Shown: piece after piece, positions 43,343-64,000 of the stretch
How the letters are laid out: the number at the start of each line of letters is the position of its first letter
Numbering within the stretch: position 1 is the stretch's first letter
DNA from: Candidatus Cloacimonadales bacterium
GTDB taxonomy: Bacteria; Cloacimonadota; Cloacimonadia; Cloacimonadales; JAIOQZ01
Assembly: GCA_942492065.1 (NCBI GenBank)
Contig: CALODV010000013.1
Location: 20,989-84,988 of the forward strand
DNA: 64,000 nucleotides
Direction: 5' to 3'
Notes under the pieces: generated by a model
Told to the model about the DNA's origin: nothing
The model's input: only the letters and a program-made list of their open reading frames with translations
Database searches by the model: none
Made by a program: the position numbers and the translations under genes

Positions 43343-43699
43343 TAATTCAGTTCCTTCCAATTCAATATTTTTATATCAATATTTTTGGGTCGATTTTAAA
43401 GTCAAGCTAAATATTAGTTTTTTTACACCTTTTTTCGGGGTATAAATCAATGGCTATTATAAAGTGTGTTATGGCTGTATTTTGGCTTGAGATAAGGGCT
43501 GAATGTTAGCCAAGGGTAACTTGGGGGAAAGGTATTTCAGAAGGAGGATTTAGCGATTAACAGTTAAGTTTTCACTACTAGGATTCAAAAAGGATTGACA
43601 GACTTATCTTTGATCTTAGCATTGTCCTATAATTCATTATAGGAGTGACCATTATGATTCGTGAGCTTACAGAAAAAATGAAAAAGGAAAGATATATCC

Positions 43700-43947
43700 C
43701 GCCACCGAGTTTGGCGAAAACAGTCACTAAATTGGCGAAAACGCACTTTTCAGCCCAAAATGACCGTTTGAAATGAACATCTGACCTTCACGAGTTTGGC
43801 GAAAATCAAAACCACCCGAAAAAACTTGCACGAGTTTGGCAGTAAATTCAACAAAAAATGCCAATCTTGTGCAAGTCGAACAGTCACAAGATTGGCAAAA
43901 ATTCAGAGTTATGAACCTATAAACGATCACTAATTTGGCGAAAAATC
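43700..43947 (+). repeat. Array of six direct, imperfect ~19-bp repeats (core TTCAC-N-AG/AA-TTTGGC(G/A)AAAA) at the prophage/host junction
   Basis: Copies at about 43703, 43725, 43787, 43828, 43883 and 43926, all in the same orientation. Spacing is irregular (22 to 62 bp). Confidence 0.7.
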
Positions 43948-44694
43948 CCAGTTACCTATCAGCAATTCCTTATAAATTAGATCACCGGTACGCACAATTC
44001 CCTTCTGTCTGGAGAGTGGAATCATAGGAAATTCAGCGAATAACTCCCGGGCTTCCGGGCAGTCATCAAGTGAAAGCAGCCATTTACCTTTGATCGTCCT
44101 CAGACAATCCCGAAACGCCTTATGATCAAACTCTCTGGCATTATCATATCTGGCACCGGTAACATAAGGCGGATCAAAGTAAAAGAAGGCTGAAGGGCTG
44201 TCATAGTACTTAATCAAGTCTTTATAGTCCTTACCCTCGATCTGTACATGGTCAAGCCTTTTAGACAGCGCTCGTATCGCATCCAGCTTGTTTCTCAGAC
44301 TCTTCTGAGCTCCTTCTCTTCTTGCACCAAACGAGTCCCCCTGAGCTCCAAAACTGAAGGTAATCACATAGAAAAAACGAGCAGCCTTTTGCAGCTCAGT
44401 AAGCCCTTCCCATTGCATCATCTTGCCGAACATGATCCTGCCGGCAGGTAGTTTCTCAAGTTCGATTATAAGGGCTTCAGGATGATACTTCACCTGAAGA
44501 AACAGGTTAGTCAACCGCTCATCCAGATCATTATAAACCTCGGTTTTAGCCCATCTGTCTTTATACAGTAAAAGCCAGCCGGCACCACCGAACGGCTCTA
44601 TGTACTTTCCAATGTTATCAGGCACAAATTGTGCAATAGTTTTACGTAGTAGACGCTTGCTTCCCATCCATGGAATAATTGAATTTGTAGGCAT
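43930..44694 (-). CDS. dam: Orphan DNA adenine methyltransferase (Dam, D12 class)
   Basis: Motifs PWMGSKR, EPFGGAGW and catalytic DPPY. ATG at 44694 overlaps the upstream ORF stop (TAATG). The track start at 44730 is a GTG. Confidence 0.85.
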   Translation of the reverse strand: MPTNSIIPWMGSKRLLRKTIAQFVPDNIGKYIEPFGGAGWLLLYKDRWAKTEVYNDLDERLTNLFLQVKYHPEALIIELEKLPAGRIMFGKMMQWEGLTELQKAARFFYVITFSFGAQGDSFGARREGAQKSLRNKLDAIRALSKRLDHVQIEGKDYKDLIKYYDSPSAFFYFDPPYVTGARYDNAREFDHKAFRDCLRTIKGKWLLSLDDCPEARELFAEFPMIPLSRQKGIVRTGDLIYKELLIGNWDFSPN

Positions 44695-44894
44695 TAAATT
44701 GTTGCTCCTGAAGTAGAAAAAGCGTCGCACCCTCGACCAAGAACACTCCTATTCAAGTGCTTGGGCATAAACCCAAAGATGCGACGCAATATATCAGTTT
44801 TAATTGATTTATCGGTCGCTTGAATAGGTCTCAGCTCTTGGTCGAAGCTAATAACAAGGTTTGATTTTGAAATTAAATTGTCAACTGTAATCAT
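44694..44894 (-). CDS. Small hypothetical phage protein between the endolysin and dam
   Basis: 66-aa ORF translationally coupled at both ends. Confidence 0.4.
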   Translation of the reverse strand: MITVDNLISKSNLVISFDQELRPIQATDKSIKTDILRRIFGFMPKHLNRSVLGRGCDAFSTSGATI

Positions 44895-44900
44895 ACTAAA

Positions 44901-45488
44901 TTACACTCTCTTCAACCAGCCACGCACATATTTCCTCTGACTCGGTTTCATACTCGCTATAACTATATAATGATATCCCTGCATAATACGCATCATCTCA
45001 TTCAAATATGCAATATCACCGCATTTAATGCAGGTCTGCACTCGTTTATAAGTCTGCCTGCCGGCAATCCCATCCTTAATAAGATCTTCACCATACTCCC
45101 GACTGCCGTCCTTCATTTTCCTGTTTAAAAGATTAAGGCAGATCTGCAAGAATTCAGCAGCAGTCTCCTGACCGCAATTCACATTAATATCAAACATCCG
45201 ATGTGCCAATTCTTCATCCGTTATATTGTCATAACCCGGTTTCTCCCAGTACTTGAGCCTGAACAGAGCTTTTGCAGCCTGTCGTAAAGCCGGATCGTTG
45301 TTCAATACTTCAACATATTTATTTGGAAAAGTCTCCTTAATTTCATCAACGTATTTCCACCATTCCCAGTCTCCGTTAAACATTCTGGCAATACCAAAAA
45401 CAGTCTCACCGCCTGCATCATCCGGATCACATGAATAACCGGCTTCAATCAAAGCTAATTTAGGGTACATCTTATCAAAATAGTCCAT
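44901..45488 (-). CDS. Endolysin, glycoside hydrolase family 108 lysozyme-like with a peptidoglycan-binding C-terminus
   Basis: N-terminal MDYFDKMYPKLALIEAGYS…DDAGGETVFGI matches the GH108 N-terminus. ATG at 45488 after AAGGAG. Confidence 0.75.
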   Translation of the reverse strand: MDYFDKMYPKLALIEAGYSCDPDDAGGETVFGIARMFNGDWEWWKYVDEIKETFPNKYVEVLNNDPALRQAAKALFRLKYWEKPGYDNITDEELAHRMFDINVNCGQETAAEFLQICLNLLNRKMKDGSREYGEDLIKDGIAGRQTYKRVQTCIKCGDIAYLNEMMRIMQGYHYIVIASMKPSQRKYVRGWLKRV

Positions 45489-45502
45489 TCTAACTCCTTT
45501 GC

Positions 45503-46150
45503 TTATATAAATGTAAAGCCAGATCCACCCACAACCATCCATGCATGGTCGCTGTTGGATACAAGCATTACGCAATCTCCAAGACTATCAAATTCTATCG
45601 TTCCTTCGTTTCCTTCGCCTCCCGGATATATAACACATTTATCTGCACTATTAGCTGTTAGCGTTGCTTTATTACCAGTCTTCAGTTTGGTGTATGTTGC
45701 AATAACGAATTTACCTGCTTTTCCTGCAATTGCCGGTAATACTACAGCAACATCCTTATCATTGGTATCAGTATCAAATTCAAGGACTTGCAGATCAGAA
45801 TCAGTTAGAACAACCGTTGATATCGAATTGATAACCGTCTTGGCTGTCATACCGTCGCATTGCATAAATCTCCCGGGATTAAGCCCAAGCCAGCCGGTAT
45901 GTAGAAATCCACCTGTAGGATTATCTTTACTGACCACTATGCCATTATTACCCTGACTCAGCGAATAACCATCTAATGTATCGGCATCGATACCGGCAGC
46001 AGTTAATTCAGCTATTACCTTATTTACAATCGTCTCTATCAGAACCGTTCTGACTCTATCATCTGAAGAGCTGTCTGCTCCTTTATCTACAATCAGTACA
46101 TCCTTATCATCAGGATTACTATCTAATGGATATGTATTAGGTCGTGGCAT
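45503..46150 (-). CDS. Phage tail fibre or receptor-binding-like protein
   Basis: 215 aa, Gly/Thr/Asn-rich and beta-rich. Lies last in the tail module before lysis. GGAGG Shine-Dalgarno. Confidence 0.4.
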   Translation of the reverse strand: MPRPNTYPLDSNPDDKDVLIVDKGADSSSDDRVRTVLIETIVNKVIAELTAAGIDADTLDGYSLSQGNNGIVVSKDNPTGGFLHTGWLGLNPGRFMQCDGMTAKTVINSISTVVLTDSDLQVLEFDTDTNDKDVAVVLPAIAGKAGKFVIATYTKLKTGNKATLTANSADKCVIYPGGEGNEGTIEFDSLGDCVMLVSNSDHAWMVVGGSGFTFI

Positions 46151-46703
46151 GTGTTTCTCCTCCTGAATTAACGGTTACTGAAGGGTTAGGATTCTCATAT
46201 CCAAGCACATCAGCACCATTCTCATCTATTATATGGTTACCGGTTTCATCTATAACAAAACTGAAGTTATCCGGTAGTGTTAAAATTGTATTTAGCTCAT
46301 AGTAGCCAACTGATTCCAAAGTCATTTTATAAGCATCAATTTGCAGTGAATCTTTATAATGATAAGGCGTAAATTCAGTAACAAAGCACCATACTTTCTG
46401 ATATGAATCTGTCTCAGGTATCACATAAACACAGCTTCCAACAGGGCAATTGTTTTGAAGATCTGTCAGTTGCGTATTGAATACCAGTGAACTGCTGGGG
46501 TCATCCACCACAACCAGTTCAAATTTTGCATAATGCCCTTTTGTAATAAGTGTTCTCCTGCCTGTTAATACCGACTTATGCATTATCTGATCAGGCACCT
46601 GTAAATTGCTTTTAAACTGGCAAATCGCTTCCAGATTATTGAAATCAATGTTGATATCACTATTGTATATTCTTGGTAATTTAGAACCTAATATAACGCC
46701 CAT
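46137..46703 (-). CDS. Phage tail protein (hypothetical)
   Basis: Position between the Dit-like and fibre-like genes. TAATG coupling. Confidence 0.4.
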   Translation of the reverse strand: MGVILGSKLPRIYNSDINIDFNNLEAICQFKSNLQVPDQIMHKSVLTGRRTLITKGHYAKFELVVVDDPSSSLVFNTQLTDLQNNCPVGSCVYVIPETDSYQKVWCFVTEFTPYHYKDSLQIDAYKMTLESVGYYELNTILTLPDNFSFVIDETGNHIIDENGADVLGYENPNPSVTVNSGGETHATT

Positions 46704-47794
46704 TATACCGCCCTCTCATATGTCATAGTACAGTTCCTAACATCAAATTTGAGCGAGTAACAGAAACAGGTATAATCGTATTCAGATAGAAGAGTTGTAA
46801 CCTCTTTTGTATCGGCTAAACCTTGAAAATATGCCAGAAATACCTGTGCAATCTGCTCCTGCAAATCATTTATCCTGTGGATCCTGTAACTGGTCGGTGC
46901 ACTCAAGTAATACAGCTCCAGATTATCAATTATAGAAAGACTCCTGTTTGCCGTATCTGTTGGAGAATCAGTGCGGTAATCAGCTTCAGAAACATCTTCA
47001 TCAATCCATGTAAGATCAAACAGTTTACTCAGCTCAACATTACTTTGAGATACGCTGAAACTGCTGATAGTAGTCTGTTTCTTATCACCAATCTTAAATA
47101 TCAGATCTGCATCAGTAAAATATCGATAATGCACCGGTAGCAGGTAGTATTTGTTGTCATGAAATACAAGCTGAACCTGTAACAATTGCAGCAAACCAAC
47201 CACCACATCATATAGATTGCTAAATGTTCTGTCCTCATTATCTGTACATCCGTAAAATTCAATCTGCTTCAACTGCAAACCAATATTGCGATATCTCATT
47301 ATTGAATTATTGTAATTGTAAGGACTTGCCAGATCTCCAACCGAATCAATTACATCCACATTCAAACACTGCTTCATAACTGATTTAATAAAGTGAATAA
47401 CCGACACATAGCTCTCATCCCAGTATTCATAAGTATATCCAAAAGCCTTATAATCAGCCATTGTATTGTTTATGTCTGTAAACCAGAATCGGCGTACATC
47501 CTGTACACTGTAATCAGATAACTTTGACAGATAGTTAACCGCTTTTATATTATATAAATACTTGTCATAATCATACTCAACACTCTCAATTATCAGACGA
47601 AAAATAGAAGTCCCGTTTAGCTTGATAATCAGGATATCTCCCGGAACAGGTACAACTCCACAGATACTGATACTTGTAGTAGTATTAACCATTGAATAAT
47701 CATAGTTAACTCGTCTCGATAACCCATTAATTTTTATCACAGTATCGGAGATGTCAGCATTGTTCAGATACACCCTAATCATACTGATCTCCAC
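46703..47794 (-). CDS. Phage distal tail or baseplate-like protein (hypothetical)
   Basis: 363 aa immediately downstream of the tape measure gene. Confidence 0.4.
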   Translation of the reverse strand: MEISMIRVYLNNADISDTVIKINGLSRRVNYDYSMVNTTTSISICGVVPVPGDILIIKLNGTSIFRLIIESVEYDYDKYLYNIKAVNYLSKLSDYSVQDVRRFWFTDINNTMADYKAFGYTYEYWDESYVSVIHFIKSVMKQCLNVDVIDSVGDLASPYNYNNSIMRYRNIGLQLKQIEFYGCTDNEDRTFSNLYDVVVGLLQLLQVQLVFHDNKYYLLPVHYRYFTDADLIFKIGDKKQTTISSFSVSQSNVELSKLFDLTWIDEDVSEADYRTDSPTDTANRSLSIIDNLELYYLSAPTSYRIHRINDLQEQIAQVFLAYFQGLADTKEVTTLLSEYDYTCFCYSLKFDVRNCTMTYERAV

Positions 47795-50744: not shown

Positions 50745-50858
50745 TGTGTTTTTCTCCTAAAGCCAAGTACATTCTTAACAGGTTCTTAATGCTCATTTTA
50801 GAACGTAAACTCGTGTAATCTGTTGAAGTGTGAACAGCCATAAATGCAACTAAATCCT

Positions 50859-51203
50859 CTAATGTATCCCTTGTTGAGTCTTCATGCCGGTTGCAGCCGT
50901 CTGAAATACCGAAGTTAGATCGGATATAATCTTGAAGACATCGTTGATAGTAAAAAAATCAGATACAATCTCCTGAAGTTGTTTGAAGCTTAATCCGGAT
51001 TCACTGCTCAATTCATCTTTGCCTTTTACTATTGTGTTTAGTACTGGATAAAGCTTGCCAGAATCCTTGATTGCCTTAATCACTTTTATAGGATTTTTAC
51101 CTTTGAAATCTACTTCAGAAATCAAATCCATTAAATCAATTGCATCCTCAGCCGTAATTTCTTTCTGTGTGTATACATTGCCGTCTATATTGTATGTTTT
51201 CAT
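50859..51203 (-). CDS. Possible tail assembly chaperone
   Basis: Small acidic ORF immediately upstream of the tape measure gene. Confidence 0.35.
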   Translation of the reverse strand: MKTYNIDGNVYTQKEITAEDAIDLMDLISEVDFKGKNPIKVIKAIKDSGKLYPVLNTIVKGKDELSSESGLSFKQLQEIVSDFFTINDVFKIISDLTSVFQTAATGMKTQQGIH

Positions 51204-51274
51204 TCGTGCTCCTTTAAATATTGTGTAGGAAAGAAACCGCCCGAATTAACGAGCGGTAACAGGAGGGTATTATG

Positions 51275-51520
51275 TCAGATCGTTGAATTTGCCTTCCCCG
51301 GTACACCATTTGCACCGGGAACACCGGTTAACTCTGAAAGTTGTTCGTGATCCTCTTTGAATGCTGACAGTAGTATCATTTTAACAATAGCTACCGCCTT
51401 ATCATCCAACTTATTACTTGTTTTCTTGACCATCTCATCAAGAAAATCGCAGAATACATTTATTATGTATTCTAGAGACATAATACTGAGGATATAGTGT
51501 AAAATTCCTGTCCAATTCAT
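51275..51520 (-). CDS. Hypothetical phage protein
   Basis: 81-aa ORF in the tail module. Confidence 0.3.
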   Translation of the reverse strand: MNWTGILHYILSIMSLEYIINVFCDFLDEMVKKTSNKLDDKAVAIVKMILLSAFKEDHEQLSELTGVPGANGVPGKANSTI

Positions 51521-51834
51521 TTCTTTAACTCCTTGATATTGATTGTTATGAAATCTAATTTCATGTTTATCTGTTTGAACTTTTCATCCACCAGCTCTCT
51601 CGTGATGAATGTAGAAAATAGGTTTTCATGATTTACCTGACATGAGCTCTTGTGTTTCTTGATATCGTTTCTCATTTCATTGATAAGTTTTGTATTCTCA
51701 GCAATTTGCGACTGCATTTTGCCAAACACATTAGCATAGGCAATGACTGCGATTATTATTGGTACAAGAGCTGTAATAATTGACGTTAAAACTGATATTT
51801 GCACAACCGACATTATACTGGCTCCCTTTGCCAT
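51517..51834 (-). CDS. Small single-pass membrane protein followed by a coiled-coil; holin-like candidate
   Basis: Transmembrane helix VLTSIITALVPIIIAVIAYANVF, then a charged coiled-coil. Confidence 0.35.
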   Translation of the reverse strand: MAKGASIMSVVQISVLTSIITALVPIIIAVIAYANVFGKMQSQIAENTKLINEMRNDIKKHKSSCQVNHENLFSTFITRELVDEKFKQINMKLDFITINIKELKK

Positions 51835-52022
51835 TCAGGCTTAATTAGCTCATTTAGTATGTCATTAACTTCATACTCCTCAAGTCCTTCAGGAATAGCC
51901 GAAAACTTGAGAACTACATCGTTATTACTTGATTTTCGAATTGTATCAATCGAGGTTTCTGCTGACTTCTCAAGCAGCTCATCTGTTAATATTGTTAATG
52001 GAATTATCACATATTTATACAT
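51813..52022 (-). CDS. Hypothetical phage protein
   Basis: 69-aa acidic ORF overlapping its neighbours. Confidence 0.3.
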   Translation of the reverse strand: MYKYVIIPLTILTDELLEKSAETSIDTIRKSSNNDVVLKFSAIPEGLEEYEVNDILNELIKPEWQREPV

Positions 52023-52788
52023 TCAAATGCTCCGGTGAGTTATAGAGTTGTACCTTATTACCGTTTACACCATAACAGTATTCACCACTGATTTTATTCA
52101 TATCGAAGTAATCAATTAAACCGTGAACATTATGTGGATTAACCGGTTTCTTGTAATTTCCGGTACCATAAAGTAACTGAGCCAGCTCCACCGGATCTGC
52201 ACTGTTTTCGATATTGTAAAAAGCTAGAGAACTCAAACCAGAAGCTGTATGCTGATAAGGTGTTCCTTCATAATAAATCGACACTGCTAATCCGTTTTGG
52301 TATGCATAGGCAACCGGAGCACTGTAGTTATTGGCAGTAATTGTTGCAGCTAAGACACCATCAATATACAGATACAATGTAATGTCTGTTCCCTCAATCT
52401 TCTCATAAGCAAAAACATGAGTCCATTTAAAACGGTAATCTCCCTGTGCAATACAGCTGATGAAGTTATTTGACTTGGATGAACCATCTTCATCGTAGCA
52501 CGTTCCCAGCATGAACCTTCCGGATTCATCTGGAACTGCTGATAATGTCAAAGGTGAAACGTTCCTTGCATAAATAAGTAAGTTCCGACCTCCAATCATA
52601 GTATCCGGATACTGAGTTATTCCATTGTCTCCCAGTAGAACCCATGCAGAAAAAGCATTGTAATCCCACAGAGGTTCACCTATAGAATTAGTGACAGATC
52701 CATAACTGTCCACACCGTCAAACCGCAGGAATTTGGCTAATATCCTGCGTTTAGCTCTGTTCAGTGCTAACTTCAAACCGAGTAACAT
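52015..52788 (-). CDS. Phage structural protein with a lectin/LamG-like beta-sandwich character
   Basis: 257 aa with Gly/Tyr/Asn-rich beta-strand composition. Confidence 0.35.
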   Translation of the reverse strand: MLLGLKLALNRAKRRILAKFLRFDGVDSYGSVTNSIGEPLWDYNAFSAWVLLGDNGITQYPDTMIGGRNLLIYARNVSPLTLSAVPDESGRFMLGTCYDEDGSSKSNNFISCIAQGDYRFKWTHVFAYEKIEGTDITLYLYIDGVLAATITANNYSAPVAYAYQNGLAVSIYYEGTPYQHTASGLSSLAFYNIENSADPVELAQLLYGTGNYKKPVNPHNVHGLIDYFDMNKISGEYCYGVNGNKVQLYNSPEHLNV

Positions 52789-53069
52789 TACACAATGCTC
52801 CAGACGATGTTAAGAACCTGTCCATCAGCACCTTTCACATAGATATTCGCCATCTTGCTTATCCCGTGTTGAAAGTAATCTGCTGGGAATCCGTCACCTG
52901 TTGCCGACTCAGCAATTGTAAACTCGGATAGGGAACTCACGATAACCTCATGAGCTCCCTCTGGTTTGCTTATCTCATGAAAATCTGTACCTGAAAGAGT
53001 TTTGTTTTCAGTTTCAAATCTTGTCGAAGTTGGTATTACTTTGCGATTATCATCTATTGAAAAAGCCAT
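52788..53069 (-). CDS. Hypothetical phage protein
   Basis: 93-aa ORF with an ATG start. Confidence 0.3.
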   Translation of the reverse strand: MAFSIDDNRKVIPTSTRFETENKTLSGTDFHEISKPEGAHEVIVSSLSEFTIAESATGDGFPADYFQHGISKMANIYVKGADGQVLNIVWSIV

Positions 53070-53077
53070 CTTACTGC

Positions 53078-53557
53078 CTATGTGGTTGGGATTGCTGCCA
53101 GTGTTCTGAATTGAGTAACAGTTGGAGTTTCCTTCTCAACATTAATCTGTAGAGTTTGTGCTTCTCCACCCGGGTACTCTTCTTCAAAATTATAAAGAAT
53201 ATCCGGAATCAGATAGTAAAAATCACCAACTGTACTCTCAAGAAGAATATCCACATTAGTTCCGCTGATATTCTGTAAAGCAATGATATTTTCAACACTT
53301 AAATGTAACAATTGACAACTGAATGTGCCTGTTCCGCCAACAGCTTTTTTACCTTCAAGCGATCCCTCAACAAACTTACTTGGTTTGTAAGTTGGCTTAA
53401 CACCTTTTTGAGTCATCCCAACCTGTTGATAAGTAGCTCTTTCGGTTTCATAAGCCGTTTTTGTATTCATATCTCCGATTGCTGCCTGTTCACGCATGAA
53501 AACTTTGAAGTTTCTTGCTACAGCTCCGGAAGTACCGTATTCTAAAACAAATGCCAT
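53078..53557 (-). CDS. Candidate major tail (tube) protein
   Basis: 159 aa. Lies between head genes and tail chaperones. AGGAGG Shine-Dalgarno. Confidence 0.4.
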   Translation of the reverse strand: MAFVLEYGTSGAVARNFKVFMREQAAIGDMNTKTAYETERATYQQVGMTQKGVKPTYKPSKFVEGSLEGKKAVGGTGTFSCQLLHLSVENIIALQNISGTNVDILLESTVGDFYYLIPDILYNFEEEYPGGEAQTLQINVEKETPTVTQFRTLAAIPTT

Positions 53558-53565
53558 CTGTCCTC

Positions 53566-53970
53566 CTATACTTTCCAGACAAGGAATGCTGTGATTGTGT
53601 TAGCTGACAGATCTGTGTTACCTGTGACTTGCAGTCTGAGATATCCTCTGAAGTGATCTCTGGATATACCGAAACGAGTCATACGCTCATGCTTAGCAAT
53701 AGACATCGCTGCACCGGCTGCCTTGATAAATGGTTTAAACTTGGCTTTTGGTAAAGTCCAGTCAGTTCCATTTTCAGAAGCCTGTACTTCTATCTCGAGT
53801 GTGTTTGCATCTGCCAGAGATATTGCATTATCTGCGACAACTACTACCTCAAGACGATTGTTATTATTACCAATTTTAACAGCATCTGAAAGCTTTGGAG
53901 TCGTATTAGCCGGCAGAGTTGTCTTCTTGAAAAAATAGCTGTTTGGAGTTACGTTAAATCCATATGGCAT
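53566..53970 (-). CDS. Phage head-proximal structural protein (hypothetical)
   Basis: 134 aa directly after the capsid gene. AGGAGG Shine-Dalgarno. Confidence 0.4.
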   Translation of the reverse strand: MPYGFNVTPNSYFFKKTTLPANTTPKLSDAVKIGNNNNRLEVVVVADNAISLADANTLEIEVQASENGTDWTLPKAKFKPFIKAAGAAMSIAKHERMTRFGISRDHFRGYLRLQVTGNTDLSANTITAFLVWKV

Positions 53971-55874: not shown

Positions 55875-55983
55875 ATCAGCTCCTTTAACTTTCGGAGGCA
55901 TTATACCATAGTAATCATATTCCAATTTAAAAAGTGGTGCTCACCACCACAAAAAAAAGCAAATAAGGTATTCGTGTGTACAA

Positions 55984-55997
55984 TTGAACCAGTTCAA
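55984..55997. promoter_or_regulatory. Perfect palindrome TTGAACcaGTTCAA in the divergent head/packaging control region. A GTGGTGctcACCACCAC hairpin lies nearby.
   Basis: Read directly in the sequence. Lies in the 140-bp gap between divergently transcribed modules. Confidence 0.3.
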
Positions 55998-56017
55998 AAA
56001 TACTACAGGAGTCATTG

Positions 56018-56401: not shown

Positions 56402-56403
56402 TT

Positions 56404-56775
56404 ATGTACGTGAGTGTAGTATCAGTAAAAGAATCAATTGGAGCCAACAGCGAGCTCATTTGCAGCGAAATCACCGACGAACAAATCGAGCAGATAATCA
56501 CAGATCAGTCAGCCTATATCGACAGCTATATCAGCAGCGTTACATCAGTGCCGGTTACAGACAACGAAGTCATCAGACGTATCTGCAAATCATTATCAGT
56601 TTACGAGATACACAAGCAAGTCTCACTGGTAGACATCCCGGATCACATCAATAACGAATACAGACACGTCAACGGACTCCTCAACAAGATCCTCAAGAGA
56701 GAGATTGTTATCGGAACTGAGTCACTCGCAATTGACTTTGTTGCTGAAGAACAGTTCTTCAAAGGATTTTTCTAA
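56404..56775 (+). CDS. Phage hypothetical protein (head-tail joining position)
   Basis: 123-aa ORF with overlapping stop and start signals. Confidence 0.35.
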   Translation: MYVSVVSVKESIGANSELICSEITDEQIEQIITDQSAYIDSYISSVTSVPVTDNEVIRRICKSLSVYEIHKQVSLVDIPDHINNEYRHVNGLLNKILKREIVIGTESLAIDFVAEEQFFKGFF

Positions 56776-57269
56776 TGTCTAAGCAAATCCTTTTAGATCA
56801 TGTTGCTGCACGTGTAATAAACCAGATCAAAAAACGCATGGAAGCGAACCGGTTCGCTAATGGACGCAAGAAAGATGGTGGTCGTAAATCCCTGATTGAG
56901 TCGAGAAAGCTATTTAATTCTATTACCTATCAAATTGAAGGTAACTCTGTCAAAATCGGCTCTAATCAGAAATATGCTAAAATCCAGAACGAGGGTGGAG
57001 TTATCAAGCCGGTTAATGCCAAGTATCTCGCTATCCCAATCCATAAAGCTGCAAAAGCCAAAAGACCTGAAGAGTTCGAGAATACCTTTATTGCAAAAGG
57101 TGTGATATTCCTAAAAAGAAGCAATGGCAAAGATCCGCTTCCTCTTTACGTCCTGAAGAAGCAGGTTACTATTCCTAAAACCAGTTTTTTAAGCATCCAG
57201 CCGGAAGACAGAACACCGATCAAGCATGTCATAGAAACATACTACGAACAACAATTGAGGGCAGAATAA
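56775..57269 (+). CDS. Virion morphogenesis protein, Mu G / P2 S-like family
   Basis: Pattern …KIQNEGGVIKPVNAKYLAIP… typical of the phage virion morphogenesis family. Confidence 0.55.
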   Translation: MSKQILLDHVAARVINQIKKRMEANRFANGRKKDGGRKSLIESRKLFNSITYQIEGNSVKIGSNQKYAKIQNEGGVIKPVNAKYLAIPIHKAAKAKRPEEFENTFIAKGVIFLKRSNGKDPLPLYVLKKQVTIPKTSFLSIQPEDRTPIKHVIETYYEQQLRAE

Positions 57270-57721
57270 TGGCATATAAAAAAGCAACCAAAGCAATAGC
57301 ACGTAACCTGTTTATGGAAGGTAAACCGGTTGAGAAAATTGCCGAGATCATGAACATCCCCCCAAAGACTATTTACAACTGGAAAAATAAAGAGGGTTGG
57401 GATACGGAATTCACAAATGCAAGCTCTATCAGTATTGTAAATGAGTTGTTCATAGGAATCATGGAACAGCTTCAGGAGATGCTTGCGAGCAAAGAATTGT
57501 TCAATTCCAAGAAAGCTGATGCAGTAAACAAAATACTCAACGCTATGAAGCGGATTGCTCCGGAAAAAGCACTGCTATCCAACATGCTCACTATGTTTCA
57601 GGACATTCTGAGCTATGCCAACAACAACATTGAAGACAGGGACTTTGTGGATAAGCTGACTGATTATGCAGAGGAGTTTTCTAATCACCTCAAGGACAAA
57701 TATGGCATCTCAAGAAGCTAA
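57269..57721 (+). CDS. Terminase small subunit candidate (helix-turn-helix)
   Basis: N-terminal helix-turn-helix-like LFMEGKPVEKIAEIMNIPPKTIYNW. Sits directly upstream of the large terminase gene. Confidence 0.5.
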   Translation: MAYKKATKAIARNLFMEGKPVEKIAEIMNIPPKTIYNWKNKEGWDTEFTNASSISIVNELFIGIMEQLQEMLASKELFNSKKADAVNKILNAMKRIAPEKALLSNMLTMFQDILSYANNNIEDRDFVDKLTDYAEEFSNHLKDKYGISRS

Positions 57722-59228
57722 TAACAAACCCTTAACCCTCAAGGAATATAATAAGCTGTTTGAGGACTTAATCGTAAATATAAAGTCTTCCACTCCTGCT
57801 TTTATTAATGACACTCCTGAGAAGCAGAAAAAGCGTATTGAGAGAGCTAAAAGAGATATCTTCTTTGCTGCAAAAACCTACTTTCCTCACCTTTGCGAAT
57901 CCGAGTTCGGAGATATTCATGTCGAAATGCATGCTGAAACTGAAGTCATGGGATCAGTCATTGGTGTGGCTGGTTTTAGAGGCATGGCTAAAACAACATT
58001 GCTCAGTGAGATAAAAACGACTTGGCAGGCAATGTTCAAGAAGATCAAGTACTGCTGTCAGGTTGCAATTGATGAGAAGTCAGCCATAGACAGATCTGCT
58101 GCTATATTCTACGAATTCAAGCACAATAAAAGGATTATTCACGACTTTGGCTACATGCTGAAAAGAGGATCCCAAAACCCGGGTAAATTCGTACTGAAGA
58201 ACGGAGTCAAAATCCATGCACTTGGCTATGGACAAGCTATCAGGGGTAAAAAACACATCGGAGCACGTCCGGACTGGATTGTGATAGATGACCTTGAAGC
58301 TCATGAAACTTATAATCCTGATATAGCAAAGAAAAAGCTGCAATACGTACTGGAAGAAGCCTATGGAGCTCTTGATAGAGGTCGTGGTCGTGTTGTCTGG
58401 CTTGGTAACCTTACTCACCGTAAATCAGCTTTAAATCTGTTCAAGAACAAATCAGATGAAAAACCTTCAAAATATAGAAAACTGCTTATTTACAAGCTGC
58501 TCATAGAGAAAAACGGCAAGCCATGTTCTGCGTGGAAAGAGCGTTTCACCATGGAGGATATCGAACGAATCCGGGAAGTCATGGGAGAACTTGGATTCCA
58601 GCGTCACATGCAGATGAATCCGATAGTCGAAGGGAACCTGATTAAGGAAAAATGGCTCAAATATTGGACTGTGCTTCCCACATTCGACAGACTCGTTACC
58701 TACTGCGATCCATCTTGGAAGGGAACTAAAACAAGCGACTTTAAGGCTATTGTCACAATTGGGTTATTCGAAGGACATTACTATATTGTGGATTTATGGG
58801 TAAGAAAGGCAACAATCTTGGATATGCTGCATCAAATGTATGACATACACAGGAGATTCCCACAGACAACGCTATTCATGGAAGCAAACTTCAACCAAGG
58901 TATGATCTGGGATGAAATTCCAAAGATATCAGATCAATATGGTTATCTGTTACCGGTTAACGAGGTTCTGAATATGGTTAATAAAGAAATACGAATCTCA
59001 AACCTTCAGCCTACATTCCAACGAGGATGGATCTATCTTCCGGATAAAATGACTGATGACAGAGAAGAACTCAGAGATGAGCTGCTTGCCTTCCCTTCAA
59101 CCGGCTTCCATGACGATGCTATAGATGCTCTTGCCGGTGCTATAACAGAGATGCCTTTACCAATTCAATCAAATGGAGACTTCAGGTCTGAAGGCTTGGA
59201 ATCAGAAAATCAATGCTATGTTGCATAA
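57702..59228 (+). CDS. Terminase large subunit (Mu gp28-like)
   Basis: Walker A AGFRGMAKTT, Walker B DWIVIDDLE, and C-terminal nuclease acidic residues (HDDAIDAL). ATG at 57702 after AAGGA. The track start at 57666 is upstream in frame. Confidence 0.8.
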   Translation: MASQEANNKPLTLKEYNKLFEDLIVNIKSSTPAFINDTPEKQKKRIERAKRDIFFAAKTYFPHLCESEFGDIHVEMHAETEVMGSVIGVAGFRGMAKTTLLSEIKTTWQAMFKKIKYCCQVAIDEKSAIDRSAAIFYEFKHNKRIIHDFGYMLKRGSQNPGKFVLKNGVKIHALGYGQAIRGKKHIGARPDWIVIDDLEAHETYNPDIAKKKLQYVLEEAYGALDRGRGRVVWLGNLTHRKSALNLFKNKSDEKPSKYRKLLIYKLLIEKNGKPCSAWKERFTMEDIERIREVMGELGFQRHMQMNPIVEGNLIKEKWLKYWTVLPTFDRLVTYCDPSWKGTKTSDFKAIVTIGLFEGHYYIVDLWVRKATILDMLHQMYDIHRRFPQTTLFMEANFNQGMIWDEIPKISDQYGYLLPVNEVLNMVNKEIRISNLQPTFQRGWIYLPDKMTDDREELRDELLAFPSTGFHDDAIDALAGAITEMPLPIQSNGDFRSEGLESENQCYVA

Positions 59229-59238
59229 GGAGACATAA

Positions 59239-61692
59239 ATGTTTAATAAATTATTCAACTTCAGAGCTAATAAATCAGAACCGATATCGGTGAAACCGGA
59301 CAAGATATCATACACAACTATCAAAGACGGTGAAGATCCTTATCTCGATACACCGATCACACCGGAGATTATTAAAAATGCTGTTCGTATGATGAAAGAA
59401 GGTGAACTGCTTGATATTCTGGCTTTGTACGACCTGATTATCGACAACAACGATAACCTCGCATCCTGTCTCGATATTCGCACTGAAGCATTAAAGTCTG
59501 TCAAATTCACAGTAGACAGTGATCTCCCGGATGCTCAGAAAGAATACTTTGATGATATCCTGAAGAAGTTCGGATCCGATCTTTGCGAGATGACTATAGA
59601 CATGAAAACCATGGGAATTGCCTTCAGACAAATGAAGTTCGAGCAGGATGGAAATCTCTGGCTTCCTTCCGAATTTACGACTTACAAAAACATAGATCTC
59701 AGGCTGGAAAACAAAAAACTTGTATTATATGACTCCTCAGGTAAGAAAAGCCTCGACAACCTGCAATTTGCCGTTTTTACAAAAAATAGATCTATTTTTC
59801 AATCTCTGCTGAAATACTATTCAATCAAGTATTTTGTGCTAACAAAATGGGTACAGATGACAGAACGTTACGGTCAACCTATGCGAGTTGGGAAATATCG
59901 CAATGGAGCTCCTGACAAAGAAAGAAATCAGCTTTGGAATATGCTGACTCAGATGGGATCTAAACTCGCTGCTATGGTTCCGGAAGGCACTGTAATCGAT
60001 TTTCAGGACTATGCAGATAAAAAAGGATCTGCTGACATCTATAAAATAGCAATGGACTACTGCGAAGAAAAAGAGACAAAACGAGTGCTCGGGCAAACCT
60101 TAACAACCACAGCCGAAAAATCCGGAACATACGCACAGGCAAAAGTCCACGACTTAGTCCGTAAAGACATTTTGAAAGGTGATATCCGGGACGCTGAACA
60201 TGTGATATCCAACATCCTGACAAAGCTCAACCGGCTCAATTTTAACGGTGAAGTTATACAAGTTGAAGGGAAAATTGACGAGCCTCTGAACAGAACGCAG
60301 GAGGTTGATATCGATGTCAAACTGAACGGCATCGGAGTTCAGCCGCCAGTCGAGTACTACATAGAAAAATACAATCTCCCGGAGGACACTGTCCTCGAAA
60401 AAAAAAACTCCATAATTCCGAACTCGAGTCCGGAACTCAGGCAGATAACTAACCTTATTGCAAATCGTAACAATCCACAAACTACTGGAGATAAACAACT
60501 TGATCAGGCTGTCAGAAATTACAAAACCCAGGTTCTCAAATCTGACAGCCCCGAAGATCTGAAATTCCCTTTTGAAATAGAAAAAGCCTTCGCAAATGCA
60601 CTTCTCCGGAAGATCAAAACCGGTTATCTTAAAGGCAAAAATAACACCAGAGCCAATGCCGGCAATCACTCAGTCAGCTATGACATTTATGATATCCAAG
60701 CTCTGCACGCCTTCCGGGCAGAAGCCTTCCAAGTCGCAGGAGTCCACAGCCAGAACATTCTGAAGGATCTCAAAGAAAGTGCATCCAAAGCCATCTCAGA
60801 AGGTGCAACATTCCACGACTGGCGTAAAGACGCACAAATAAAAGGTTTTGAGCTTCAAAATCCTTACTATGCACGAACTAACTTTAACACAGCAGTAAAT
60901 AACGCTTATCTTGCCGGGCAGTGGATAAATATTGAGAAACAGCAGGATATCTTCCCATACTTAGAATATAACTCTGCTATGATGGAGACAACTCGTCAAA
61001 GCCATGCAGATCTTCACGGTACAATTTTACCGGTTAACCATCCATTCTGGAACACACATTATCCGATAAACGACTGGAACTGTCACTGTTGGGTATCTCA
61101 ACTCACAAGGAAAGAAGCTGAAGAACATCAGAACTTTGGTAAAGCTGTTCCTGATATCGAGATCCCGGACGATTTTAAGAGAAATTCAGGCAAAGATCTC
61201 TGTTTGTGGGGGAAATGGATCGAGAGACAGAACATTCAGCCTAAAACGTGGCAGGATCACGGTTTGAAGCCAGCAAAAGAGTTATCTCAAAGCAGTAAAA
61301 CCAAAGCTCCCGAACTCCTCAAGCTTCCGGACGAAAAAGCATACAAAGATTATTACAACGAGCATCTCAAAGGCATTCATGAAGATGTAACCGGACATCC
61401 GGTTGAGTTGGGAGACTACTTCATAGATCATATCAGAGATAAGGATACAAAAGCAAGGACTGAAAGATTTGAGAAGTTCAGCAGGTTGTTACCTACAATC
61501 AAAAACGCTGATGAAGTGTGGTTGGGTAGAAATTCAGCAAATAAGGATATCGTTTATTACATCAAATATTTTGATAATGCTAAACCGGGTTTCTCTGTTG
61601 TTCTGGTTGAGAAAGGATCACTCACAACTTTCTATCAGGCAAAAGAAAACTACATTGATAAACAGAGAAAAGGCATCCTGATTCATGAATAA
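59239..61692 (+). CDS. Portal protein (Mu gp29/DUF935-like) fused to a C-terminal MuF-like head morphogenesis domain
   Basis: 817 aa. The C-terminal region has the MuF signature …TRQSHADLHGT…PP.H.NCHCW. The N-terminal ~430 aa have portal-like composition. Confidence 0.75.
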   Translation: MFNKLFNFRANKSEPISVKPDKISYTTIKDGEDPYLDTPITPEIIKNAVRMMKEGELLDILALYDLIIDNNDNLASCLDIRTEALKSVKFTVDSDLPDAQKEYFDDILKKFGSDLCEMTIDMKTMGIAFRQMKFEQDGNLWLPSEFTTYKNIDLRLENKKLVLYDSSGKKSLDNLQFAVFTKNRSIFQSLLKYYSIKYFVLTKWVQMTERYGQPMRVGKYRNGAPDKERNQLWNMLTQMGSKLAAMVPEGTVIDFQDYADKKGSADIYKIAMDYCEEKETKRVLGQTLTTTAEKSGTYAQAKVHDLVRKDILKGDIRDAEHVISNILTKLNRLNFNGEVIQVEGKIDEPLNRTQEVDIDVKLNGIGVQPPVEYYIEKYNLPEDTVLEKKNSIIPNSSPELRQITNLIANRNNPQTTGDKQLDQAVRNYKTQVLKSDSPEDLKFPFEIEKAFANALLRKIKTGYLKGKNNTRANAGNHSVSYDIYDIQALHAFRAEAFQVAGVHSQNILKDLKESASKAISEGATFHDWRKDAQIKGFELQNPYYARTNFNTAVNNAYLAGQWINIEKQQDIFPYLEYNSAMMETTRQSHADLHGTILPVNHPFWNTHYPINDWNCHCWVSQLTRKEAEEHQNFGKAVPDIEIPDDFKRNSGKDLCLWGKWIERQNIQPKTWQDHGLKPAKELSQSSKTKAPELLKLPDEKAYKDYYNEHLKGIHEDVTGHPVELGDYFIDHIRDKDTKARTERFEKFSRLLPTIKNADEVWLGRNSANKDIVYYIKYFDNAKPGFSVVLVEKGSLTTFYQAKENYIDKQRKGILIHE

Positions 61693-61807: not shown

Positions 61808-62005
61808 TCAATTTGTTTTGAAGTAAATCTTGCGTACCCAGTCAAAACTCAATGCCCATTCTTCAGCAACCATACTGAAGGCTTCTTCTTTAGTGTATCC
61901 TCTGCCTTTATAATCATCAACAGCTATCCGGATTTTGCTATTGCGAATCTCTCTTCGCTGCTCTTTAGTTTTTCGTAGTCGTTTAATTCTCTTTGGCACT
62001 TTCAT
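61808..62005 (-). CDS. Small basic phage protein (possible regulator)
   Basis: 65 aa with an Arg/Lys-rich N-terminus. GAGAGG Shine-Dalgarno. Confidence 0.35.
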   Translation of the reverse strand: MKVPKRIKRLRKTKEQRREIRNSKIRIAVDDYKGRGYTKEEAFSMVAEEWALSFDWVRKIYFKTN

Positions 62006-62204
62006 ACCTCTCTAATTTATCTGTTATAATCTGTTTATTGTCTTCATCCTGATGTCTGAGCAAATCCTGCTCCAGCTCTGCCAACTCAAGCAGATAGTAC
62101 TTCCTCAAAGCACAAATCCTGTACTTCGCACTATCGCACCAGTTATGCCTGCAAAGCGGCACAGGACAGCCCATTTTTGCTCTATCAGGATTATTGTTTG
62201 CCAT
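61983..62204 (-). CDS. Small C4 zinc-finger protein
   Basis: 73 aa with CPVPLCRHNWC…C. AAGGAAG Shine-Dalgarno. Confidence 0.4.
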   Translation of the reverse strand: MANNNPDRAKMGCPVPLCRHNWCDSAKYRICALRKYYLLELAELEQDLLRHQDEDNKQIITDKLERYESAKEN

Positions 62205-62850
62205 GTTCTTCCTTCAGCTTCCTGTAAGCATAACTAAATTTGACCGGTGCTTGCGGATCCTTCATTTTTGCAAGAAACCATTGTGCCTGCATTTCAACCA
62301 ACTTCTGAGGCATTGGATACTTGTCATACTCCTTCTCATTCATACCGGCTACATAGTCCCGGAATGCTCCATAACTTGGAAACGCATACCATGGCTTTAA
62401 TTCTTCACGTACAGCCTTATTTTCCTTTGCCAGTTCTGCTGTCTTCTTGCGTTGTTCTTCGGCTTTCTCAGCCTTGATCTGCTCCTCCTGACGAAGAGCT
62501 TCAGCCAGATATCCACCGAACTTCTCAGAATTATAAAGCGTAGAAGGTCGCAGGTATTTAGACCATTCTGGAGTATTCAGCCACCGGTCGCACATGATAT
62601 TATTAACCTTCTTGAAATCCTCTACAGTGTAGCCTTCTGCCAATCTTGCCTTGATGTGACTTACTGCTTCCTTGGATTTAGGACTGAATCGGCTCTTACT
62701 TCTCACATTGAGATGCTGAATTACTTCTGCAACAACAGCAGGGAGTTTCAGCAGCAGTTTATAATGAGCTCGGAGAGAGTCTTTAACAGACTTCTCCCCG
62801 TGTATTGCTACCGCCTCATTATGTAGTTGTTTAAGCGTTTTCTGGCTCAT
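62191..62850 (-). CDS. Phage replication-associated protein with a Phg_2220_C (DnaD-like) domain
   Basis: Conserved block …SKEAVSHIKARLAEGYTVEDFKKV…WSKYLRPSTLYN.EKF.GYL.E. ATG at 62850 after GAGGTG. Confidence 0.55.
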   Translation of the reverse strand: MSQKTLKQLHNEAVAIHGEKSVKDSLRAHYKLLLKLPAVVAEVIQHLNVRSKSRFSPKSKEAVSHIKARLAEGYTVEDFKKVNNIMCDRWLNTPEWSKYLRPSTLYNSEKFGGYLAEALRQEEQIKAEKAEEQRKKTAELAKENKAVREELKPWYAFPSYGAFRDYVAGMNEKEYDKYPMPQKLVEMQAQWFLAKMKDPQAPVKFSYAYRKLKEEHGKQ

Positions 62851-63295
62851 CCTGCACCTCAAGATCATTGAAGTCTATTACAATTGCCTTACAGAAGATT
62901 TCACCGTCTTCCATGATGTTAAATTTGTGATGTTTAACCTTGGTTTGAATTTCCCAACTGCAAGAGCTGTCCGGACACCAGAGAGCGTCAATTTTGAGAG
63001 CATTTTTCTTGCGTTCTAAATACTTCTCGAACTCAATGTCGTACTCATCAAGTTCAAATTCGTACCTTTCAAAATCTGGACGCTGAATTAGTCCGGATTT
63101 ATCAAAAGGAATATCTGTTTTTCCATTATCTGCATAAGTTTCATCATGAAAGAGACCATCGTATTCCACAATATCATCAGAATAACCATAGACAACAAGC
63201 CAATTGTTTGCTTTGCAAATCTCTCTTTGTTCACCGGTCAACACAAATGGATATTCATCTACATTAAGCTGCTTTACAAATTCCTCTATTTTCAT
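62831..63295 (-). CDS. Highly acidic hypothetical protein
   Basis: 154 aa, about 25% Asp plus Glu. AGGAGG Shine-Dalgarno. Confidence 0.4.
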   Translation of the reverse strand: MKIEEFVKQLNVDEYPFVLTGEQREICKANNWLVVYGYSDDIVEYDGLFHDETYADNGKTDIPFDKSGLIQRPDFERYEFELDEYDIEFEKYLERKKNALKIDALWCPDSSCSWEIQTKVKHHKFNIMEDGEIFCKAIVIDFNDLEVQDEPENA

Positions 63296-63303
63296 TGTTC
63301 CTC

Positions 63304-63903
63304 CTATATTGCTGAAAAGTTAAGCGTTACAAGCTTGAATTGTTTGTTTGGGGCAGGTCTCTGATAGAAGGCTATGTATTGTTTTGTAGATGTAACCTGA
63401 ATAGCTTCATCAATCAAGTTCATAGCTTTTTCCCATTCCTCATCCTTAATCTTATACTTGCGAAGTCCGAGGATTTTGCTCTTAGCAATCAAGCCTTTTG
63501 TATCGACTTGAAAGGCTTCTTTTATTATCGACTGAAGATTGATGTTCGTGTCTTTGCTCCATCTTGTCAGACAATTATCAATTTTTTGCTTGGCAATCTG
63601 GAGCTCTGCACCAAATTGAATATGTTCACGGTAGCGGATTTCTATCTTGTATTGACCATCAAAGCTCAGGAGTTCGGTGTTGCCCTTCCAAGACTCACCA
63701 TACTGCTCTGCTAATTCGGTCAAATAAGCTTCAATTTCCGCTACCATCTTTTGCTTTTCTTTCTCAATCCGATCGTGCAGCTTAAGTGCTCTTCCCATTG
63801 CACGACTAACTATCCTATCTCGGCTGATGATGTTAGGATCAAGAATCTTTACCGGGTATTCTCTACCATGTTCATCAACCAGTGTTTTCTCTTTTCTAGC
63901 CAT
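63304..63903 (-). CDS. DUF3164-like protein (family common in Mu-like prophage early regions)
   Basis: 199 aa with family resemblance by overall pattern. AAAAGGAGAA Shine-Dalgarno. Confidence 0.45.
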   Translation of the reverse strand: MARKEKTLVDEHGREYPVKILDPNIISRDRIVSRAMGRALKLHDRIEKEKQKMVAEIEAYLTELAEQYGESWKGNTELLSFDGQYKIEIRYREHIQFGAELQIAKQKIDNCLTRWSKDTNINLQSIIKEAFQVDTKGLIAKSKILGLRKYKIKDEEWEKAMNLIDEAIQVTSTKQYIAFYQRPAPNKQFKLVTLNFSAI

Positions 63904-63940
63904 TTGTTCTCCTTTTACTTATAATCTTTGATCTTTTGTC

Positions 63941-64000
63941 TCAAGAATGTAATTTTAGCTTCCTGTTCGTCATAAAACTCAAGTGAACTCTCAAGATATA
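63941..64000 (-). CDS. 3' end of a further minus-strand phage ORF entering from beyond the window
   Basis: Open frame …YILRVHLSFMTNRKLKLHS* ending at a TGA at 63941, followed by the Shine-Dalgarno of the next gene. Confidence 0.25.
   Translation of the reverse strand, partial: YILRVHLSFMTNRKLKLHS

Follow-up and report, generated by a model that had tools for sequence, protein, structure and literature searches.

Bacteroides phage Hankyphage p00 (BK010646), placed in the candidate family 'Alisviridae' (PMC6199706, PMC10367356, PMC12135933), is a siphovirus by electron microscopy that inserts at random and generates 5-bp duplications (PMC6199706). The Winoviridae, among them Flavobacterium phage fF4 and Winogradskyella phage Peternella, undergo replicative transposition and are myoviruses with a sheath among their core genes (PMC8776804). 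Here we describe a prophage that resembles these phages in 64,000 nucleotides of DNA from Candidatus Cloacimonadales bacterium (GenBank assembly GCA_942492065.1, contig CALODV010000013.1, positions 20,989 to 84,988; this whole stretch is called the window). With good confidence, we read the part from 43.66 to 64.0 kb as belonging to an apparently intact Mu-like transposable prophage of an uncultured Cloacimonadota host, of which it would hold the late two-thirds. The packaging genes of the element form a cassette opposed to the other genes. Cloacimonadota are an uncultured phylum that is abundant in anaerobic digesters, and a search of the literature for the phylum and Mu-like phages together found no published case.

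The element and Hankyphage have in common MuA and MuB, early genes on one strand, and a packaging and neck cassette that is read in the opposite direction and diverges from the protease gene; the genes for capsid, tape measure and tail come next, with that for an N6-adenine methylase at the far end. By tblastn, only terL (24%), terS (29%) and the MuF region (32%) match. The gene order differs, in that the neck genes come first in the window and the portal gene last, converging on the early genes. Portal and MuF are separate in Hankyphage and fused here, the protease is of the ClpP type in Hankyphage but of the Mu I type in the window, and the capsid families differ. Neither a diversity-generating retroelement nor a large tail fibre was seen in the window. 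Finally, Hankyphage is about 43 kb long and comes from Bacteroidota, whereas the Cloacimonadota element would reach a total of about 27-28 kb, a length estimated by extrapolation.

Elizabethkingia phage TCUEAP3 (OK632026) is similar in its MuA, MuB and DUF3164 genes, its opposed cassette diverging from the protease gene, its long tape measure without an annotated sheath, its terminal DNA-modification gene and its 33-kb genome. It differs in having separate portal and F genes in the order terS-terL-adaptor-portal-F-G and a very large tail fibre, and its terL is 27% identical. The Winoviridae are likewise Mu-like, with an opposed cassette beside the protease gene, but the sheath is a core gene there and no ORF (open reading frame) of the window matches a sheath family. 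Escherichia phage Mu itself (NC_000929) shares MuA and MuB, early genes of the DUF3164 and GemA types, the portal, F, G, gp36, gp37-like and I genes, and terminal repeats containing CGAAAA. Mu is, however, a collinear myovirus with sheath and baseplate, its portal (H) and F are separate genes, its lysis genes come first rather than at the far end, and its late activators Mor and C were not detected in the window. In Mu, too, one operon gives way to another between G and I (Plys versus PI transcripts), and it is at this point that the two late operons of the window element are split. The Pseudomonas phages of the D3112, B3 and JBD types and the Mu-like siphoviruses of Ralstonia join a head and packaging module of Mu type to a non-contractile tail, as the window element probably does. 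These proteobacterial transposable siphoviruses, whose late genes are collinear with the early genes, dominate the database matches of terL and the protease, at identities below 30%.

No near-identical DNA was found among GenBank phages. Among transposable phages whose packaging cassette is opposed, the element is a new and divergent member, set apart from known phages by its order (neck first, portal last), its fused portal-F gene, the pairing of a Mu-I protease with an epsilon15-type capsid, and its small genome.

Identity of the element

Genes are tightly packed from about 43.7 kb to the end of the window and fall into three segments of orientation: leftward from 43.7 to 55.9 kb, rightward from 56.0 to 61.7 kb, and leftward again from 61.8 kb on (Table 1). 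A preliminary description, made from the letters and the ORF list alone, had proposed a Mu-type prophage over 43690-64000, and the core of that reading is right: the genes are of Mu type, no sheath is detectable, and the packaging block runs against both the early and the head and tail genes. All the genes that it listed were found in the places and orientations that it gave them: head, tail, lysis and dam genes are read leftward, the block from the G-like gene through terS and terL to portal-F is read rightward from the control region, and the early-like genes are read leftward, convergent on the portal gene. Pfam and PHROG profiles, a check of the kind that it had suggested, bore out most of its gene calls, including the gpI-like protease, the G-like protein and the MuF domain, with the capsid as the exception. 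The Mu-type morphogenesis genes (portal gp29, F, G, gp36 and I) were all matched, as expected of a Mu-like phage.

The prophage runs past the window edge at 64000. A 6.6-kb metagenome contig (L001) overlaps the last 1.5 kb of the window, with shared proteins 99-100% identical, and continues into a GemA-like gene, a MuB-like AAA+ gene (AAA_22/TniB) and a gene for a MuA-type transposase (Mu-transpos_C E 4e-15, plus rve). This overlap and the presence of MuA and MuB make the element a transposable phage, with its early end just beyond the window edge.

The opposed cassette in related prophages

The closest relative of the portal fusion is only 39% identical, and the portals of the relatives range from 31 to 39%. 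Scans of genomes and viral contigs with the single portal protein gave no close relative, and an alignment-based scan was needed; it brought up about 22 loci from Cloacimonadota genomes, together with several viral contigs. Order and orientation agree in essentially all of the loci that are long enough for a judgement: capsid and protease on the minus strand; gp37-like, gp36, G, terS, terL and portal::F on the plus strand; and orf73, Phg_2220_C, DUF3164, MuB and MuA again on the minus strand. The portal::MuF::PBECR2 fusion is conserved across this Cloacimonadota clade. The head and tail module is mosaic, most relatives pairing the cassette with a ClpP-type protease and Phage_capsid_2, as against the Mu-I protease and GP7-type capsid of the window.

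The same topology occurs in three isolated phages, Hankyphage p00, TCUEAP3 and fF4, in which the cassette is opposed, diverges from the protease gene and a DNA-modification gene lies at the far end. The gene set of the cassette is shared with all three; their order is terS-terL-adaptor-portal-F-G. The preliminary description had spoken of an inverted packaging cassette. The orientation is real, but no local event lies behind it, as the layout is fixed in a clade of about 25 Cloacimonadota prophages and recurs in the three isolates. From these sequence comparisons we take the opposed cassette to be the ancestral architecture of the lineage, shared with the Hankyphage-type phages of Bacteroidota, and not a recent inversion. 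One locus speaks against a general rule: L095 (IMGVR_UViG_3300022663_000151), a relative with the portal::F fusion, carries everything on a single strand, beginning with the early genes and continuing with portal-F, terS, terL, G, protease and capsid. Since L095 is collinear, the opposed cassette is not universal in the wider group. The finding extends the opposed cassette of Hankyphage-type phages beyond Bacteroidota and adds a second gene order. A Cloacimonadales genome has, within or around the prohead protease region of its related prophage, two genes for reverse transcriptases (RVT_1) that may belong to group II introns (L006:1904-5615).

Packaging, head and lysis genes

Within the cassette, terL has no pairwise BLAST similarity to Mu gp28, and a gp28-like identity by this route was rejected. 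Its database matches are dominated by transposable phages of Ralstonia, Pseudomonas, Bacteroides and others. The label of a Mu-type terminase and portal given earlier is thus overstated for terL at the level of pairwise similarity, although terL groups with the terminases of other transposable phages.

The last gene of the cassette encodes an 817-aa fusion in which Phage_Mu_F covers residues 511-619 and PBECR2, an RNase-like domain of the BECR fold, residues 711-816; MuF followed by a C-terminal effector-type domain is the polyvalent MuF architecture. Among solved portal structures, those that match the portal part include a 512-aa chain of PDB 9khx (E 2e-18) that we take, from the length of the chain, to be Mu gp29. 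Jamet et al. in 2017 reportedly found a cognate immunity gene directly downstream of MuF toxins. No ORF that could be such a gene lies downstream of the fusion, between the portal stop at 61692 and the convergent orf65 (61808). Iyer et al. (2017, PMC5512222) describe portal plus MuF plus PBECR as the simplest of the PBECR architectures and note a domain of this type at the end of Mu F itself. The fusion has the architecture of these portal-MuF-PBECR polyvalent proteins and is clade-wide in the Mu-like prophages of Cloacimonadota.

On the other side of the control region, the protease is 28% identical to Mu gpI (BLASTP E 6e-12). The capsid had been called gpT-like, a candidate that we rejected: it is a member of the epsilon15 gp7-like family, and BLASTP revealed no similarity to Mu T (E 1.8). 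Its database relatives, at about 24% identity, are epsilon15-like and other podovirus-type capsids, and the family name GP7 presumably derives from the epsilon15 capsid protein. Beside the capsid gene, the 134-aa protein has a weak match to the cement protein Bbp16 of BPP-1 (E 0.011, below the Pfam cut-off).

Several TAATG stop/start overlaps had been noted, and six are present, at 54921 (I/capsid), 52788, 46703, 44692-44696 (orf66/dam), 56775 and 57269. At the fourth of these, the start of dam overlaps the stop of orf66; the 254-aa Dam product recurs in an independent contig.

Table 1. Position of the features of the prophage in the window, with the two-hairpin RNA of related loci in the last row
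Feature	Position	Strand	Basis or remark
Prophage end (late-gene, attR-like)	43662..43950	.	Repeats and contig breaks
Dam, D12-class N6-adenine methyltransferase, last leftward late gene	ORF 43930-44730, start ATG 44694	-	D12 profile
66-aa ORF (orf66)	44694..44894	-	No family match
Endolysin, GH108 + PG_binding_3, 196 aa	ORF 44901-45575, likely start ATG 45491	-	Pfam
Three post-tape-measure ORFans (363, 188, 215 aa), putative minimal tail-tip/receptor-binding module	45503..47794	-	Position
Tape measure, 989 aa	47775..50744	-	PhageMin_Tail PF10145 E 1e-31
Putative tail assembly chaperone pair, including orf114	50745..51203	-	Position
Terminator-like hairpin within late operon, between orf81 and chaperone gene	51236..51257	-	Terminator scan
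Three small ORFs (81, 105, 69 aa) between putative tube gene and chaperone	51275..52022	-	No function assigned
257-aa ORFan in major-tail (tube) position	52015..52788	-	Position only
Three head-completion/decoration/connector candidates (93, 159, 134 aa)	52788..53970	-	Position
Major capsid protein (HK97 fold class)	53980-54921	-	PF20911 'GP7' E 6e-19
Mu gpI-type prohead protease/scaffold, first leftward late gene	ORF 54921-55925, start ATG 55874	-	Mu-like_Pro PF10123 E 4e-38
Predicted extended -10 TGgTATAAT of leftward head/tail/lysis operon	55900..55908	-	Pattern; predicted only
Central dyad GTGGTG-CTCAC-CACCAC	55934..55950	.	Sole copy in window
Rightward -10-like TACAAT	55979-55984	+	Pattern
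TTGAAC-CA-GTTCAA palindrome (TTGAACcaGTTCAA)	55984-55997		About +1 to +14 of predicted rightward transcript; 6-bp arms, non-palindromic 2-nt centre
gp37-like 127-aa protein (weak), first cassette gene	from ATG 56018	+	phrog_490 E 1e-4 (PHROG containing Mu gp37)
gp36-like head-tail adaptor	56404-56775	+	Phage_Mu_Gp36 E 1e-12; phrog_195 E 8e-12
G-like tail-completion protein	56775-57269	+	Phage_tail_S E 8e-7; phrog_26 E 1.5e-12
Small terminase terS	57269-57721	+	DUF1804/Terminase_5
Large terminase terL	ORF 57666-59228, start probably ATG 57709	+	phrog_38 E 6e-67
Portal::MuF::PBECR2 fusion	59239-61692	+	Portal_Mu E 2e-55; Phage_Mu_F E 4e-15; PBECR2 E 5e-14
Extended imperfect hairpin, ~87 nt, U7 end, abutting portal stop	61781-61695	-	Fold z-scores
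Sigma70-type promoter, TTGACA-N16-TATTTT	TTGACA 61811-61806, TATTTT 61789-61784	-	Promoter scan; points into hairpin
Distal early/middle region: orf65, orf73, Phg_2220_C protein, orf154 (phrog_25176), DUF3164	61808..63903	-	Profiles
orf73	61983-62204	-	Conserved ~70-85-aa family; CX4CX4CX7C motif, then LCALRKY
DUF3164, Mu-type early protein	63304-63903	-	Pfam
Two-hairpin RNA in relatives	L016:12748-12818, L019:3594-3664, L026:12537-12607, L033:12381-12456	-	Also in L012, L018, L027, L028, L093, L096, L097

The divergent control region

Taking the ATGs at 55874 and 56018, each preceded by a Shine-Dalgarno (SD) sequence, as the true starts, the region between the two late operons measures 143 bp, in agreement with the control region of about 140 bp first placed near 55.9 kb. 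The central dyad lies exactly midway between two divergent -10 elements, 28 nt from each, and neither promoter has a -35 element. The control regions of 16 relatives carry dyads that differ in sequence (for example GTGGGTAAAATACCCAC, GTATCGTAAATTACGATAC and TAGGGTAATTATTACCCTA), and in most of the 16 TGnTATAAT-like elements stand equidistant on both sides, at about 36.5 bp from the centre of the dyad to the hexamer. This fixed, mirrored geometry of dyad and -10 elements is the strongest regulatory signal of the locus. It suggests that the dyad is the site of one dimeric activator, centred near -48, that would serve both late promoters. No second copy of the dyad was found elsewhere in the prophage, and when the corresponding regions of Hankyphage, TCUEAP3 and fF4 were scanned for inverted repeats, nothing clearly comparable came up. 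We infer the function of the promoters, and the existence of an activator, from this arrangement.

The preliminary description had drawn attention to another element of this region, the perfect palindrome TTGAACcaGTTCAA. It exists, but it is neither rare nor conserved and its centre is not palindromic. Inverted repeats with 6-bp arms and a 2-nt centre number 27 in the window, nine of them in the prophage, so that the TTGAAC palindrome is not beyond chance; it is also absent from all relatives, and we rejected it as an operator.

Two results count against promoters and an activator site in this region: no sigma70-type promoter passed the scan here, the -10 elements having been recognised from pattern and symmetry alone, and the dyad, which has a run of T on the minus strand, is scored there as a terminator and may be an RNA hairpin. 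The dyad could accordingly be a terminator or insulator hairpin between the operons instead of a protein-binding site, which we hold to be unlikely but worth keeping in view. Besides the terminator score, this would suit the arms of the relatives, which vary freely yet stay complementary and are flanked by A- and T-runs. Palindromic operators also change in mirrored fashion, however, and transcription is not expected to enter a divergent promoter region. Nor does a terminator need an equal, fixed distance of 36.5 bp to both -10 elements, yet this spacing recurs in most relatives. We retain the dyad as the probable site of a shared activator.

Left end and apparent intactness of the prophage

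Host-side Logan metagenome contigs with identical host genes stop at 43650, and a phage-side contig with identical Dam and tail genes stops at 43664. These breaks and a TG dinucleotide place the end of the element at about 43.66 kb, somewhat to the left of the limit of 43690 given earlier. The terminal TG is probably that at 43662-43663. The left 250 bp of the element contain six direct copies of a CGAGTTTGGCGAAAA-like motif (at 43706, 43727, 43791, 43831, 43887 and 43930) and one inverted copy (43859-43876), the cluster spanning 43706-43944; with 0-1 mismatch there is no further match in the 64 kb. The CGAAAA core of the copies faces inward, as it does at the MuA sites of Mu ends, and the copies are putative binding sites of a MuA-type transposase.

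Some points weigh against an intact transposable prophage. The window stops short of the right end, of the repressor and of the N-terminal portion of the transposase, and MuA and MuB are linked to it through a separate metagenome contig (L001), which leaves completeness and a target-site duplication short of proof. For its part, the tail-tip module is of unusually small size, and the tape measure is the one tail protein that is not an ORFan; the tail may be defective or unusual.

The element could be a defective prophage, or a domesticated remnant no longer able to form infective particles. There are only three small tail-tip genes, no holin was recognised and the right end is unseen; moreover, the related Hankyphage yields defective particles in the laboratory (PMC12135933). 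We nevertheless consider this improbable. The genes are tightly packed, no frameshifts or stops are visible in any recognised gene, SD sites, translational coupling and terminal repeats are intact, and head, neck, packaging and tail-assembly functions are all represented. Identical proteins also came from two sequencing runs, with contig breaks close to the phage end. Taken as the intact prophage that we infer, the element provides a well-delimited Mu-type temperate phage for Cloacimonadota. It does not overturn current understanding; its value lies in cataloguing and in two concrete regulatory hypotheses.

Tail type

The virion is most likely that of a siphovirus, to judge from the sizes and order of the genes, the absence of sheath and baseplate matches, and the parallel with Hankyphage and TCUEAP3. 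The siphovirus tail proposed in the preliminary description is upheld as far as the 989-aa tape measure and the lack of a detectable sheath go; as the tail proteins have no detectable homologues, the type itself is only deduced.

The relatives' tape measures match weakly, at 25-37% identity. Just upstream of the tape measure, orf114 contains a slippery T TTT TTT at about 50958, and three-frame translation finds the -1 frame open up to the start of the tape measure gene. The slippery site and the -1 ORF fit the conserved G/GT chaperone frameshift of long-tailed phages, and a programmed frameshift of this type would account for the 114-nt 'gap' before the tape measure. For the 257-aa protein in the tube position, searches of 5.8 billion clustered proteins and of 1.84 billion representatives gave no homologue apart from two weak repeat-type matches, and its AlphaFold single-sequence model was unusable (pLDDT 33). 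Neither it nor the 363-aa protein found a phage match by tblastn, and the 363-, 188- and 215-aa proteins behind the tape measure have no Pfam, PHROG or phage-database match. The module that these three would form, 766 aa in total, falls far short of a myovirus baseplate in size.

A contractile tail whose sheath and baseplate have diverged beyond detection, with the 257-aa or the 363-aa protein as the sheath, seems to us very improbable. In its favour, the Winoviridae fF4 and Peternella combine an opposed cassette with a sheath core gene and are myoviruses (PMC8776804), and tail ORFs without homologues allow no positive identification of a siphovirus tube. Yet Pfam and PHROGs, searched with limits as permissive as E 5, gave no ORF a match to a sheath, tube-initiator or baseplate family. 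The genes beyond the tape measure encode no more than 766 aa, that for the 363-aa protein is among them and does not precede the tube, and the 989-aa tape measure and the gene order resemble those of the siphoviruses Hankyphage and TCUEAP3.

The hairpin within the leftward operon at 51236-51257 is GC-rich and is possibly an attenuator that lowers the expression of the tape measure and tip genes.

The convergent junction and proposed late-gene control

The hairpin between the portal stop and the early genes has fold z-scores of -5.8 (plus strand) and -4.4 (minus strand); on the latter strand U7 follows it. About a dozen relatives likewise have a promoter at the junction whose -35 is TTGACA or a close variant, and the window-type hairpin is common to L005 and L013. 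Many relatives carry at this place a different, conserved candidate RNA of about 70 nt with two hairpins, on the opposite strand, behind a TTGACA-N17-TAnnnT promoter and just downstream of the portal fusion. The loops of this RNA are complementary over 5-7 nt, and both stems and loop-loop pairs covary (for example CUUAAUC/GAUUAAG, CUUGCC/GGCAAG, CGUGCAA/UUGCACG), the loops in the manner of a kissing or pseudoknot pair. In 11 sequences segmented by hand, 91-100% of the cells pair, as against 48-70% with permuted partners, and none of 2000 permutations reaches the observed value; the segmentation was chosen by eye and leans towards pairing. G-U pairs on the minus strand account for 22 of 200 cells in these sequences.

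RNAalifold on MAFFT alignments of the junction RNA found no structure, the stems being misaligned. Rfam had no match for the window or for six relatives, nor for the L033 junction with E values up to 10. Matches to the sequence profile of the two-hairpin RNA were found only at the portal junction, and the window was not matched by the nhmmer profile of the relatives' RNA; its hairpin is at most a remodelled relative of the two-hairpin RNA. The junction element is at minimum a bidirectional terminator between convergent units, and its promoter and fold suggest that it may be a small RNA. In some relatives the junction RNA is present in two or three tandem copies (L018:12723-12877, L025:12766-12982).

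That the cassette arose by a recent local inversion or an assembly error in this genome, perhaps inactivating the prophage, is scarcely credible: the strand does switch at both cassette borders and the corresponding genes of Mu are collinear, but the same orientation and order recur in about 25 independent assemblies with portals only 31-39% identical, isolated phages have the same orientation, both borders bear dedicated conserved elements (the symmetric promoter pair and the terminator or RNA), a 4-kb Logan contig from an independent assembly spans the portal/orf65 junction with an identical portal gene, and no long inverted repeats flank the block.

Two small genes at the end of the early region are of interest for the control of the late genes. 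The first, orf65, belongs to a conserved family of small proteins with an HTH-like RNxxIR...YLSxxTVRDI pattern. As a homologue of Mor or C, which it resembles in position and in the HTH-like pattern, it was rejected (hhalign probability 1% or less), and some members of the family have only weak Pfam matches to DUF434/DUF7769. The second, orf73, has no Pfam or PHROG match; in size and position it recalls, we presume, small zinc-finger late activators such as P2 Ogr, with a negative Pfam scan. On present sequence comparisons, the lack of significant similarity of orf65 to Mu Mor or C, and of a family match for orf73, would also weaken the case for either as a late activator.

We propose the following scheme. 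The early and middle genes run leftward, with MuA and MuB just outside the window. The late genes would form two divergent operons issuing from the single 143-bp control region: a rightward one with the gp37-like, gp36-like and G-like genes, terS, terL and portal::MuF::PBECR2, and a leftward one with the Mu-I protease/scaffold, the epsilon15-type capsid, the connectors, the putative tube, the frameshifted chaperone, the tape measure, the three-gene tip, the endolysin and Dam. Both late promoters would be activator-dependent, of the extended -10 type without a -35 element, and one dimeric factor bound to the central dyad would fire them together; orf65 and orf73, by their position at the end of the early region, are the candidate activators. 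The rightward cassette converges on the early region, with the long hairpin between them, which resembles a promoter-driven small RNA.

A bolder version of this scheme, which we regard as a long shot, is that the locus holds two undescribed devices, namely a one-site dyad switch for both late operons and a junction RNA of a new class acting with the portal/MuF/RNase-like protein, for example as an RNA antidote to PBECR2 or as a packaging cofactor, and hence not a mere terminator. We found no prior description of the symmetric late-promoter unit or of the junction RNA. The two are compact, testable handles on the switching-on of late genes.

Insertion site and host genes

On the host side, the flanking genes encode Rex, [FeFe]-hydrogenase and its maturases, SecA, TopA and Lon, and the best named relatives of TopA (about 60% identity) are all from Cloacimonadota. 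A search of metagenomes with the host flank, for an empty site, gave no match. A related strain (L171) is 95% identical up to 43526 and then diverges before the junction, and so gives no empty site. In place of window positions 43527-43650, L171 carries a DUF3800 gene. The corresponding segment specific to the window has a strong TTGACA...TATAAT promoter directed at the prophage end. The phage may have inserted in a strain-variable locus and severed a promoter from its gene. Several relatives are present twice in one genome, at distant sites in complete Cloacimonadales genomes (L016/L017, L018/L025 and L021/L023). Two copies per genome fit transposition or repeated lysogeny and are suggestive only.

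Elsewhere in the host part of the window, two genes stand out as unusual: positions 5553-7271 encode a 572-aa protein whose first ~310 residues are PdxA, followed by a long unassigned C-terminal extension, and an ORF of 1880 aa occupies positions 24783-30425.

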